Assembly (NCBI GenBank): GCA_963737905.1
Contig: CAVTUQ010000028.1
Location: 182,942-246,941 of the forward strand
Length of the DNA stretch: 64,000 bases
Reading direction: 5' to 3'
From: an uncultured delta proteobacterium
Lineage (GTDB): Bacteria > Desulfobacterota > Binatia > UBA9968
Part shown: piece by piece, positions 10,341 through 13,017 of the stretch
How the letters are laid out: every line of letters begins with the position of its first letter
How positions within the stretch are numbered: the stretch's first letter is position 1
Made by a program: the position numbers and the translations under genes
Notes under the pieces: generated by a model
Databases searched by the model: none
Told to the model about the DNA's origin: nothing
What the model saw: only the letters and a program-made list of their open reading frames with translations

Positions 10341-11696
10341 TTAGAGGCGAAAACTGTGTTTTGTGACAAAGACGCCCTGTCCCAACGGCGGCAATCGGCC
10401 GGTCCCAAAGAAATCTCCACTTTCAACTTCGAATGTTCCCGCATTCCGAATCCAATCGGCGATCGCTCCATTCACGGTAGCGTACAATGTAAGATGATAG
10501 CGGCCGGGTAAGAGTGGAAAGGCAGGGATTTTCACCGAGATCTCGCGTACCTCAGCTGAAACAAGTAGAAAGTCCCCTTGCGCGATGGCCGTATCTAATA
10601 ACAACACCCGCTGGCCGATGTTATTGTCCACTCCGATGCTAACGTGGAAATTACGGAGATCGCGAGCGTGCGGGTTGCTAAACTTTATCACTAAAGTGCC
10701 CGGTGCACCGCATACAAAGGCACCTAGCGGTTTGGCATCTTTGTTACGCAACTCAATACCTATAAACCGAATTGCACCAGATCCCTGCCGATCCAATCGT
10801 TCCTCGATCTTCATGTCAACTAGGCTGGTGGATTTGTATTGATAATGATGAATCACTTCCGCAATGTCTCCCTGCGAAGCGACTCGACCGCTGGAAAGAT
10901 GCAGCCCCGTGTGACATAGATTCTGCGCTGCTGCCATCTGGTGACTGACAAACAACACTGTGCGACCCCCTCGAGCGACCTCCGACATCTTGCCCAGGCA
11001 TTTCTTTTGAAACTCAGCATCGCCCACAGCCAGGACTTCATCGACGATTAGAATTTCCGGCTCCAGGTGGGCGGCCACTGCAAACGCCAGCCGGACGTAC
11101 ATGCCGCTGGAATATCGCTTGACGGGCGTGTCAATGAATTTCTCCACTCCGGAAAAGTCCACGATCTCGTCGAATTTCTTCTGAACTTCGGCCCTCGTCA
11201 TGCCGAGAATCGCGCCGTTCACGAAAATATTTTCGCGCCCGGTTAATTCCGGATGAAAGCCCGTTCCTACTTCCAGCAAGCTCGCCACCCGGCCACGGAT
11301 ACGCACGCGGCCTTCGGTCGGCTCCGTGATCCGGCTGAGAATCTTGAGCAGAGTGGTTTTGCCGGCGCCGTTGCGCCCGATGATGCCGAGTACCTCGCCC
11401 TGTTTCACCTCAAAATTCACCCCCCGGAGAGCCCAGAACTCCTCGCTAGCCAGAGGTCGGAGGTCAGAGGTCAGAGGTCGCAAACCAGAGGTCGGAGGCC
11501 GGAGGTCAGAGGTCGGAGCACCATTATCTGATCTCTGATGTCTGATCGCTGACGTCTGGCCAGAGAGCCAGCGTAGCGGTGCCGCCGCTTTTTCAGCGAT
11601 GACATCGCGGAGCGCGACATACCGCTGATGATCCTGCTGGTGGCGGATCTTGTATTTCTTGCCGAGGTTTTCGACGCGTATGATGAAGTCAGACAT
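10341..11696 (-). CDS. wzt: Polysaccharide ABC transporter ATP-binding protein with C-terminal Wzt_C domain
   Basis: [32 protein letters not shown]-terminal GSGAIRF...PGRYHL domain; carries an in-frame repeat insertion. Confidence 0.92.
11449..11560. repeat. Inverted TCAGAGG-type heptamer hairpin inside wzt (in frame)
   Basis: gccagaggtcggaggtcagaggtcagagg... loop ...tctgatctctgatgtctgatcgctgacgtctggc; encodes [20 protein letters not shown]. Confidence 0.9.
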
Positions 11697-11698
11697 GG

Positions 11699-11745
11699 CC
11701 AGAGGTCAGAAGTCAGACGTCGGAGGTCAGATGTCAGAGATCAGA
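11699..11745. repeat. Heptamer arm type A (TCAGAGG), left arm
   Basis: ccagaggtcagaagtcagacgtcggaggtcagatgtcagagatcaga. Confidence 0.9.
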
Positions 11746-12107
11746 AAAGGGCCGGGGTTCTTGATCATACTACCAAGCATTTTCCCAACCTCTTGAGACA
11801 TCAACGCTAACTCACGATGTTGTTCCAGCGTGAGAAAGCCGCACTCGCGAGCAAAATCCAATGAAGAATCAGTTTCGCTGTTTTCACCGTCGCAGTCGGT
11901 TAACTTGCTAATGAAATGCGCTTCGTATCTTCTCTTTGCCCAGGCCTCTCTTAAATTCAAGCAGACCGACCGCGATGACCGCCGTATTTGACTGGTCAGC
12001 GCAAAACGCTCTTCATCTGGGAATTTCTTGCTAAGTGTGAATATTTTCATCGCCAGATCATAGGCCTTTTTGTAAACTTCCAAGTCTTTGGCTGAATTAA
12101 GTCTCAC
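11727..12107 (-). CDS. Four helix bundle protein (23S rRNA IVS protein / Avd-like family)
   Basis: KDLEVYKKA...FPDEERFALTSQIRRSSRSVCLNLREAWAKRRY...ENSET; GTG start after GGGGAAGG. Confidence 0.9.
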   Translation of the reverse strand: MRLNSAKDLEVYKKAYDLAMKIFTLSKKFPDEERFALTSQIRRSSRSVCLNLREAWAKRRYEAHFISKLTDCDGENSETDSSLDFARECGFLTLEQHRELALMSQEVGKMLGSMIKNPGPFLISDI

Positions 12108-12117
12108 ACCTTCCCCG

Positions 12118-12185
12118 CTGATCTCGGACTTCTGACTGCTGGTCTTCAAATAGCTGACTTCTGACCTCTGATCGCTGACCTCTGG
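12118..12185. repeat. Heptamer arm type A, right (inverted) arm
   Basis: ctgatctcggacttctgac...ctgacttctgacctctgatcgctgacctctgg. Confidence 0.9.
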
Positions 12186-12186
12186 T

Positions 12187-13017
12187 TCAAATGACGTCCG
12201 CGAAACTTCGTTCGACGCGGCGGAAATACCAGATCCCGAAAATACAGAGGCCAGATGTCAGAGCCACAGAGGTCAGAACACTCGGCCACCATAACGGGAC
12301 TTCGCCGCGGAGGAGCGCCCAGCGGAAGCCGTCGATGACACCGACCATTGGGTTGAGGGAATAGAGCAGGCGCCAGTTAGCCGGGATGTTTTCGCTGGTG
12401 AAGCCAACAGGCGAAACATACAAGCCGAATTGAACGATGAATGGAATGACATAGCGGAAATCGCGGTATGTCACGTTGAGCGCGCAGAGCCATAGGCCGG
12501 CGCCAAAGGCGGAACCGAATGCCAGAGCCACAAACAGCGGCAAGGTCACGATCCGCCAGTCGGGCAGAAAGCCGTACCAAACCATCATCGCCGCCATCAG
12601 CCCGAAGGTGATGAGAAAATCCACGAAGCTCGTGATGACGGACCCCGCCGGAACGATCATGCGCGGAAAGTAAACTTTGGAAATCAAGTTCGCATTGCTG
12701 ACGAGACTATTGCTCGACTCGCTCAGCGCGGTCGAGAAAAACTGCCACGGCAGCATCGCGGCAAATACCAGCAGCGGATACGGCACGGAACCGGGCGCTT
12801 CGAGCTTGGCGACTTTGTTAAAAACAATCGTGAAGACAATCATCGTGACGAACGGCCGGATCAGCGCCCAGGCGATGCCGATCACAGTCTGTTTGTAACG
12901 CACGGTCACATCGCGCCAGGCGAGAATGTAGAACAGCTCGCGGTAGCGCCAGAGGTCGCGCCAGTAGTTCCGGAACGAGCGGCCGGGTTCGATTACGAGT
13001 TCGTCGGGCATTGGCAT
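12187..13017 (-). CDS. wzm: Polysaccharide ABC transporter permease
   Basis: DLWRYRELFYILAWRDVTVRYKQT...SKVYFPR...LNPMVGVIDGFRWAL...FADVI. Confidence 0.92.
   Translation of the reverse strand: MPMPDELVIEPGRSFRNYWRDLWRYRELFYILAWRDVTVRYKQTVIGIAWALIRPFVTMIVFTIVFNKVAKLEAPGSVPYPLLVFAAMLPWQFFSTALSESSNSLVSNANLISKVYFPRMIVPAGSVITSFVDFLITFGLMAAMMVWYGFLPDWRIVTLPLFVALAFGSAFGAGLWLCALNVTYRDFRYVIPFIVQFGLYVSPVGFTSENIPANWRLLYSLNPMVGVIDGFRWALLRGEVPLWWPSVLTSVALTSGLCIFGIWYFRRVERSFADVI

Follow-up and report, generated by a model that had tools for sequence, protein, structure and literature searches.

Intervening sequences in 23S rRNA are the described elements closest to the locus reported here. That of Coxiella is a stem-loop of 428 nucleotides (nt) with a 28-bp terminal stem and an S23p open reading frame (ORF) in its loop; three tandem GACAGAT heptamers and a degenerate one lie ahead of the ORF, the first being the site of cleavage by RNase III (PMC4990558). 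The same source calls the element selfish and of unclear origin, reports that its ORF is decaying and notes that the repeat number differs among strains. In this study, a 64,000-nt stretch of DNA from an uncultured delta proteobacterium (G000:C28:182942-246941, where G000 is the host genome), hereafter the window, was analyzed. A cassette was found at 11699-12185 in which a four-helix-bundle gene of the family PF05635/TIGR02436 is held between inverted arrays of TCAGAGG-type heptamers, at the junction between the polysaccharide export genes wzm and wzt. Genes of this functionally uncharacterized family are very common. Published annotations place members in a capsule locus of Riemerella (PMC13688083) and, in a cyanobacterium, between cmr3 and cmr2 (PMC3936711), and in such capsule and cas loci they have so far been read as functional partners of the host operon.

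The window element resembles the 23S rRNA intervening sequences of Leptospira and Coxiella in its size (~430-490 nt), in its terminal inverted repeats that could form a stem and in the PF05635 ORF in the loop. Like the Coxiella element, it carries tandem heptamers on the 5' side of the stem, directly ahead of the ORF, and the GACAGAT unit is one base off the GTCAGAT units of the window element. A sporadic, horizontally acquired distribution is a further likeness (PMC4990558). The element shares every structural feature of the Coxiella intervening sequence except the host. The host is the mRNA of a protein-coding operon, and the element sits in the intercistronic wzm/wzt junction instead of helix 9, 25 or 45 of 23S rRNA. 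In addition, the Coxiella ORF is reported to be decaying, whereas the window-type gene is apparently under selection, and cognate inverted heptamer arrays are not described as a general feature of 23S rRNA intervening sequences in the available part of PMC4990558.

All genes of the cassette locus are on the minus strand, and direct reading of that strand gave the order wzm TGA-A-[arm...PF05635 gene...arm]-CC-ATG wzt, exactly the layout that an original prediction, made from the letters of the window, had put forward. The features are as follows:

12187-13032, minus strand: wzm, permease of an ABC-2 type polysaccharide/O-antigen exporter (PF01061 ABC2_membrane, E 4e-19)

12109-12185, minus strand: 5' arm, about 11 tandem TCAGAGG-type heptamers, the inner half degenerate

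11727-12107, minus strand: four-helix-bundle gene (PF05635/TIGR02436), 126 aa, start codon GTG at 12107-12105

11699-11746, minus strand: 3' arm, seven CCTCTGA-type heptamers, final letters CTGACCTCTGG

10341-11696, minus strand: wzt, ABC ATPase (ABC_tran and Wzt_C)

A single A (12186) separates the wzm stop codon TGA (12189-12187) from the 5' arm, the outermost 11 nt of which are CCAGAGGTCAG (12185-12175). Their perfect complement CTGACCTCTGG lies at the end of the 3' arm (11709-11699), and the dinucleotide CC (11698-11697) is all that stands between this arm and the wzt ATG (11696-11694). Tandem Repeats Finder reported period 7 in both arms, with CAGAGGT repeated 6.6 times at 11700-11745 and CTGACCT 4.4 times at 12154-12184. 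The perfect complementarity of the outer 11 nt and the heptameric nature of both arms, as predicted, are thereby confirmed. The same applies to the claim that wzt has no Shine-Dalgarno sequence of its own, as no such purine-rich run occurs in the 13 nt upstream of its ATG (CTGACCTCTGGCC). No promoter-like or terminator-like sites were found within the element. In related genomes, wzm homologues are followed by wzt. Four soil DNA runs gave mostly short contigs of other organisms on the conserved Walker-A part. A few near-identical soil contigs of 150-170 nt span the arm/gene boundaries at 11674-11824 and 12046-12213, and a low-depth joint from 11728 to 12154 (side 25 nt) most likely represents an arms-only copy elsewhere; none of the soil contigs was used as evidence.

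The cassette gene had been listed as a longer ORF, 11727-12149, starting from a TTG at 12149. Because the ATG of homologues aligns with GTG 12107, this codon is the most likely start, so that the predicted four-helix gene is retained with a shifted start and now carries a family assignment. The octamer GGGGAAGG (12116-12109) at the inner end of the 5' arm may serve the cassette gene as a ribosome-binding site, and the last codons and the stop codon of this gene (TGA 11729-11727) fall within the 3' arm. The window protein scores 105.1 bits with the PF05635 profile (curated cut-off 33.8, E 3e-30) and 97.7 bits with TIGR02436 (cut-off 24). It is similar in sequence to PDB entries 2rld (E 6e-10) and 2gsc (E 3e-9), both of which are structures with five chains. 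The family motif GxxRxxxSxxxNxxE (PMC3936711) is represented by QIRRSSRSVCLNLRE, in which R-x3-S-x3-N-x2-E is present and the first position is Q instead of G. This Q, the S, the N and a later E are invariant in the 10 aligned PF05635 copies of the genome. PADLOC assigned no defense family to either of the two four-helix proteins of the window, and phage records gave no match. The original prediction had related the family to the intervening sequences of 23S rRNA and to Avd, the four-helix-bundle protein of diversity-generating retroelements (DGRs); this relation is supported by the Pfam and NCBIfam matches and by the literature (PMC4990558, PMC10053308).

Pairing between the two arms was evaluated by inverted local alignment, which gave a score of 34 compared with 15.1 +/- 2.0 for 200 shuffles (maximum 24; z 9.4). 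The region 11690-12195 (506 nt), whose folding had been proposed as a check, has a predicted RNA fold of -179 kcal/mol (z -4.5), and none of 100 shuffles was as stable. As the arms are tandem repeats, several stem registers are possible. The register that joins the wzm stop to the wzt start at the base of the stem does exist, but the predicted minimum-energy register is shifted by two units and has 17 perfect pairs between 12170-12154 and 11716-11700. The stop-to-start register is therefore, according to the fold prediction, one among several near-equivalent registers, which corrects the original description.

The host genome contains 11 PF05635 matches, and inverted tandem-repeat arms were found at all of them. 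The repeat units are 7-mers, in one subfamily 9-mers, and vary with the protein subfamily; those found were TCAGAGG, GGAGCAT, CGGATTT, ATTTTCG, TTGAGAG, AAGCAGT, TATGGCC and a GTTCAA-type. Arm pairing reached z >= 5 in 11/11 copies, with 0/200 shuffles matching the observed score. When every upstream arm was compared with every reverse-complemented downstream arm, cognate pairs dominated the matrix, and off-diagonal blocks appeared only within a protein subfamily. The other copies are 21-33% identical to the window protein and are therefore old paralogues, each with arms of its own. One of them (C3:96226) is likewise located between a wzm stop and a wzt start. An internal TGA stop marks the copy at G000:C7:225723-225974 as a possible pseudogene; its arms are retained. 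Two near-identical cassettes with CGGATTT arms occur just upstream of the window (G000:C28:165905 and 173136). Their flanks also carry outer GGAGCA-type arrays, and the arrangement resembles a segmental duplication in which arrays are nested. The idea that the 3' arm provides stops in all three frames was dropped, being true of TCAGAGG-type arms and not of several other unit families.

Given the low identity between paralogues, relatives were sought with single proteins as queries. The 126-aa window protein retrieved at least 513 relatives, of which the best 80 (69-87% identity) were analyzed. These stem from metagenome-assembled genomes (MAGs) labeled Deltaproteobacteria, Verrucomicrobia, Acidobacteria, Binatia, Ignavibacteria, Planctomycetes, Bacteroidetes, Chloroflexota, Kiritimatiellae and others; the RpoB of the host itself is 90-93% identical to that of MAGs labeled Deltaproteobacteria, Syntrophobacteraceae or Binatia. 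At least three sense TCAGAGG-type units upstream together with at least three antisense units downstream were present at 70 of the 80 loci. The mean number of units was 8.0 upstream and 6.9 downstream, compared with 1.5 and 1.5 in the wrong orientation, and arrays in the right orientation occurred at 73 and 73 loci, as against 15 and 16 for the wrong one. A scan that made no assumption about the unit detected period-7 runs in 76/80 upstream and 70/80 downstream flanks, with AGAGGTC, a rotation of the TCAGAGG-type unit, as the commonest consensus on both sides. Relatives of the second PF05635 protein of the window, which have GGAGCNG units, showed arm pairing of z >= 4 at 53/78 evaluated loci and a period-7 run on at least one side at 70/78. 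The same layout is found on complete plasmids of cultured Nostoc, where genes 50-58% identical are enclosed by inverted GCAGGGA or GCAGGGGA arrays; an assembly artefact is thereby ruled out. Culturable carriers among the loci are Nostoc punctiforme PCC 73102 (plasmid pNPUN02, L215), Tangfeifania diversioriginum DSM 27063 (L095), Luteolibacter pohnpeiensis KCTC 22041 (L206) and Spirosoma soli KCTC 42805 (L209). The most similar gene pairs share their flanks, and the gene is conserved at least as well as these (e.g. 98.7% compared with 92-94%), from which it follows that inheritance has been largely vertical, with the protein apparently under selection. Pairs that are ~80-84% identical and have unrelated flanks point to older relocations. 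Gene and arms make up a single heritable unit, transferred between phyla, and the cassette is a discrete element rather than an ordinary intergenic gene.

The cassettes prefer junctions within operons. An ORF of at least 100 aa was present on both sides at 70 of the 80 loci, and in 55 of these 70 both neighbors were co-directional. For 48 evaluable loci, with co-directional neighbors and detectable arms on both sides, it was asked whether the arms abut the neighboring genes, that is, whether the 5' arm begins no more than 10 nt after the upstream stop and the 3' arm ends no more than 12 nt before the first start codon of the downstream ORF. Both arms did so at 14 loci, as in the window, and a Shine-Dalgarno-like tetramer precedes the downstream start in one of the 14. 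Homologous four-helix genes without inverted arms next to stop and start codons had been named as a finding that would speak against the original prediction; the homologues elsewhere carry inverted and often abutting arms, and the prediction therefore stands in this respect. The upstream neighbors are sugar or polysaccharide enzymes in 26/76 cases, three of these 26 being wzm-type permeases (L069, L092, L093). Seven Acidobacteria loci have one ferredoxin-type upstream gene in common, which is an orthologous context. L008 was left out of the synteny comparison, its flanks belonging to a large paralogous family.

Empty wzm-wzt junctions, for which a comparison of relatives had been proposed as a check, were looked for by a search for Wzm homologues in 30 related genomes. 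Five junctions are empty (L014, L017, L022, L030, L036), their stop and start codons being separated by 2-3 nt or overlapping each other, and three have short gaps (L018, L035, L037). A PF05635 cassette with other arms occupies the junction in L026, L029 and L032, and in L021 a cassette comes after wzm; the unpublished genome G006 is the source of L017 and L029. Removal of the element from the window junction leaves TGAACCATG, the same TGA-NN(N)-ATG form as the empty sites. In the same-genus genomes G001 and G002, both fragmented assemblies, no Wzm match at E <= 1e-40 was found and hence no close empty site. The closest ortholog junction is L013 (G015:C5), with Wzm 61% and Wzt 68% identical. 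Here (1041-1500) TCAGAGG arms directly follow the stop and end shortly before the ATG, and enclose ~270 nt of non-coding cargo with two copies of a GC-rich palindrome; this cargo matches neither PF05635 nor Rfam and has no convincing ORF. A junction of lexA-like and imuA-like genes is loaded in G000 (L002, C7), has arms only in G015 (C387) and has neither in G004, and G015 has a loaded cassette one junction beyond (the two G015 features are in L124, at 900-1130 and 3240-3750). At L124 2926-2968 an arm-like array lies within a coding region.

Arms also occur by themselves. Genome-wide, 913 period-7 runs were counted compared with 182 in a block-shuffled control, 141 of the 913 on contig C28. 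Among paired runs with a gap of at most 30 nt, 91 were inverted and 12 direct. The genome has 86 tight, non-overlapping hairpins, and ~62 of them have units of resident PF05635 copies. In the exopolysaccharide/O-antigen cluster of the window (11-27 kb), period-7 arrays of several unit families are found in nearly every intergenic gap. Arms-only derivatives are thus common, and junctions occur in loaded, arms-only and empty states. The further arm-bounded features of the window and the neighbors of its second cassette are:

11450-11560, minus strand: arms-only TCAGAGG-family hairpin, an in-frame insert of the variable wzt linker

13221-16295: composite inverted arms (52 nt, 87% complementary) around a 3-kb block of toxin-antitoxin-like small genes

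16400-19594: Wzy_C/TPR gene, neighbor of the second cassette

19612-20214, minus strand: second cassette, PF05635 gene at ~19771-20133 with GGAGCAT-type inverted arms at 20175-20214 and 19612-19697

20226-20954: Wzc-like ATPase gene, the other neighbor of the second cassette, in the same gene cluster as wzm-wzt

33682-33753, 50508-50611 and 55327-55394: arms-only hairpins built from 9-mers and 7-mers of the GTTCAA type

The hairpin in the wzt linker is translated as TSDLRP-like repeats and has CGG, CGA or GGT where an in-frame TGA would be expected. This insert is also present in the G015 ortholog and is lacking in five other Wzt proteins (one from the unpublished G006). The block at 13221-16295 encodes DUF2283, DUF5615, two DUF433 proteins and UPF0175, and TCAGAGG-type sub-arms enclose DUF2283 alone and the DUF5615/DUF433 pair. 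The GTTCAA-type unit family is that of two PF05635 copies on contig C7.

How such a cassette could be borne by an operon is suggested by the rRNA elements. We read 11699-12185 as an intervening-sequence-type cassette whose RNA stem would loop the cassette out and keep wzm and wzt functionally adjacent, an interpretation to which we give somewhat better than even credence. The arms would zip into a long, register-tolerant stem in the polycistronic transcript, and wzm stop and wzt start would meet at its base, in a layout that by analogy is that of the 23S rRNA intervening sequences cut by RNase III (PMC4990558). The host operon would stay functional either through coupled unmasking and re-initiation or through processing into separate stable mRNAs, and the cassette would be tolerated wherever a transcript can bear an additional stem-loop. 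The protein probably recognizes the heptamer array, as RNA or DNA. On a wider scale, PF05635 genes and their cognate inverted arrays might constitute widespread selfish 'zipper cassettes' that colonize stem-loop-tolerant transcripts, with each protein reading its own heptamer code; this is put forward tentatively, as a possibility that we consider somewhat doubtful. Hosts of such cassettes would be rRNA helices, junctions in polysaccharide, cas and other operons and, for arms-only derivatives, ORFs. The protein would either drive the spread of loaded and arms-only copies or control their RNA processing.

Several observations weigh against an RNA stem of this kind or against a mobile cassette. 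Arm mismatches at the 80 loci were G-U-compatible on the sense strand in 185 cases and A-C in 213 (p 0.18), and the duplex energy was -98.8 kcal/mol for sense and -98.4 for antisense (n=75, p 0.42). The window element itself would be more stable as an antisense duplex (-76.2 compared with -67.9 for sense). Both strand-asymmetry tests are thus neutral and do not favor the RNA reading. Of the predicted mobile or RNA-level element, the discrete element stands. Translational coupling, RNA processing and an action of the protein on the arms, all three part of the original prediction, are inferred. Arms pair only slightly better with their own partner than across loci (27.56 and 26.10 matches per 35 nt, a difference reached by 0/5000 permutations). 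This surplus could stem from lineage-specific unit variants or correlated arm lengths, and in a stricter set of 19 loci the own-arm percentile tests were not significant. The complementarity is therefore mainly that of a shared unit family placed in mirror orientation. The arms-only hairpin in the wzt linker is translated, and therefore such stems are not always efficiently cleaved. The two PF05635 proteins of the window have isoelectric points of 7.7 and 5.6 and are not basic. The Nostoc relatives, at 50-58% identity, use another unit, and the tie between unit and protein lineage is thus not a strict one. The element edges (TGA-A / CC-ATG) show no target-site duplication, and no transposase or recombinase gene lies inside or beside the element, the four-helix gene being its sole ORF. 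Finally, no near-identical copies in differing contexts were found among the relatives, and hence no recent transposition was seen.

This leads to the question whether the arms act as RNA at all. They could instead be a pair of arrays of heptad sites at which the four-helix protein or another regulator binds double-stranded DNA, forming a regulatory or insulating module of polysaccharide operons in which the complementarity merely follows from the mirror placement of one site array. Across phyla the unit keeps its fixed positions, there is little complementarity beyond that of the units and the arms have no RNA strand bias, all as a binding array would have it. The unit family moreover tracks the protein subfamily, numerous arms-only copies match the units of resident proteins (~62/86), conservation of the gene equals or exceeds that of its flanks and 26/76 upstream neighbors are sugar or polysaccharide enzymes. 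A precedent is found in Geobacter metallireducens, where paired tandem 7-9-mers, among them a class MTYCTGA, have been catalogued as 'putative global regulator binding sites' (PMC2700814). These pairs consist of three to five tandem 7-9-mers each, on opposite strands and at variable spacing, between and within genes. MTYCTGA is the complement family of the window arms, and the window element, with two opposite-strand tandem 7-9-mer arrays at a variable distance, fits the definition. The Geobacter sites were described from one genome, and the term 'four helix' is absent from the main text of PMC2700814. However, a binding array needs no inversion bias, yet tight pairs are inverted in 91 cases and direct in 12, and the mirror orientation is nearly obligatory at the 80 loci (right orientation at 73 and 73 loci, wrong orientation at 15 and 16). 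The homologous rRNA elements are RNA stems that are cut by RNase III (PMC4990558). The near-neutral or acidic proteins also argue against DNA binding. To our knowledge, PF05635 has no DNA-binding motif. A binding array is on these grounds considered unlikely. Abundant intergenic tandem heptamers are otherwise known from Xanthomonas and Nostoc in a G-quadruplex study, with 70-75 heptamer arrays as convergent opposite-strand pairs in Xanthomonas (PMC4692102), and as TAACTGA repeats in Beggiatoaceae (PMC4679880). Their units are different, they were read as quadruplexes or as post-transcriptional regulation, and neither paper mentions PF05635 or four-helix genes. In the literature covered, which excluded supplements and most subscription journals, no paper beyond Coxiella tied PF05635 genes to inverted heptamer arrays.

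The arms might also act at the DNA level only, as terminal inverted repeats or hairpin/cruciform sites for movement or cassette exchange by an enzyme in trans, which would make the RNA stem an irrelevant by-product. Exchange would account for the other cargo within the same arms of the ortholog L013, for the toxin-antitoxin-like small genes enclosed by TCAGAGG-type and composite arms at 13248-16295 and for a single junction in loaded, arms-only and empty states, and the spread of the unit over phyla and onto conjugative Nostoc plasmids, together with the lack of strand bias, fits movement as DNA. Transposable elements of the miniature inverted-repeat kind (MITEs) with their autonomous parents and integron cassettes are similar in having small cargo between inverted ends, many cargo-less derivatives, intergenic residence and, in some neighboring cassettes, toxin-antitoxin-like genes. 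They differ from the present case, which has no transposase or integrase, no target-site duplication and no sign of recent bursts, and the window ends are tandem 7-mer arrays, unlike unique inverted repeats or attC sites. With no recombinase in or beside the element and no near-identical copies in different contexts, and with the co-orientation with neighbors and the exact stop-to-start filling left unexplained, this alternative is regarded as distinctly unlikely. That the gene encodes a DGR Avd-type accessory protein, the repeats serving template or target recognition, would agree with weak matches to the bAvd-like PF22296 (E 1e-12) and the NCBIfam Avd model. The score with the latter, the Avd equivalog NF033474, is 42.3 bits and below the cut-off of 80. 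Avd and the window protein have a homologous four-helix-bundle fold family in common, solved relatives of which crystallize with five chains. No reverse transcriptase is adjacent, the only RVT_1 match of the genome being on another contig (C25), and there is no template/variable repeat pair, the arms being simple heptamer arrays. The Avd reading is largely refuted by these differences and retains a minimal probability. An equally minimal one is left to chance or neutral slippage of simple-sequence repeats beside an ordinary small gene. Tandem heptamers can expand in this way, and their number differs among Coxiella strains (PMC4990558), but the pairing of z >= 5 in 11/11 copies, the layout kept in 70/80 relatives across phyla and the 913 period-7 runs compared with 182 in the control refute it.

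If PF05635 genes are self-contained, hairpin-bounded cassettes, their associations with cas and capsule loci need to be read again. The 30-year-old question on the nature of rRNA intervening sequences would become testable in ordinary operons and culturable bacteria, and the paired heptamer repeats that abound in many genomes would be given a source. The wzm-wzt junction would exemplify a 490-nt insert within a translationally coupled gene pair that does not break the coupling. The broader reading as zipper cassettes, if true, would jointly explain the rRNA intervening sequences, the so far unexplained scatter of these genes in capsule and CRISPR loci and the paired heptamer families. The subfamily-specific heptamers suggest a simple, possibly programmable code of protein-nucleic acid recognition.

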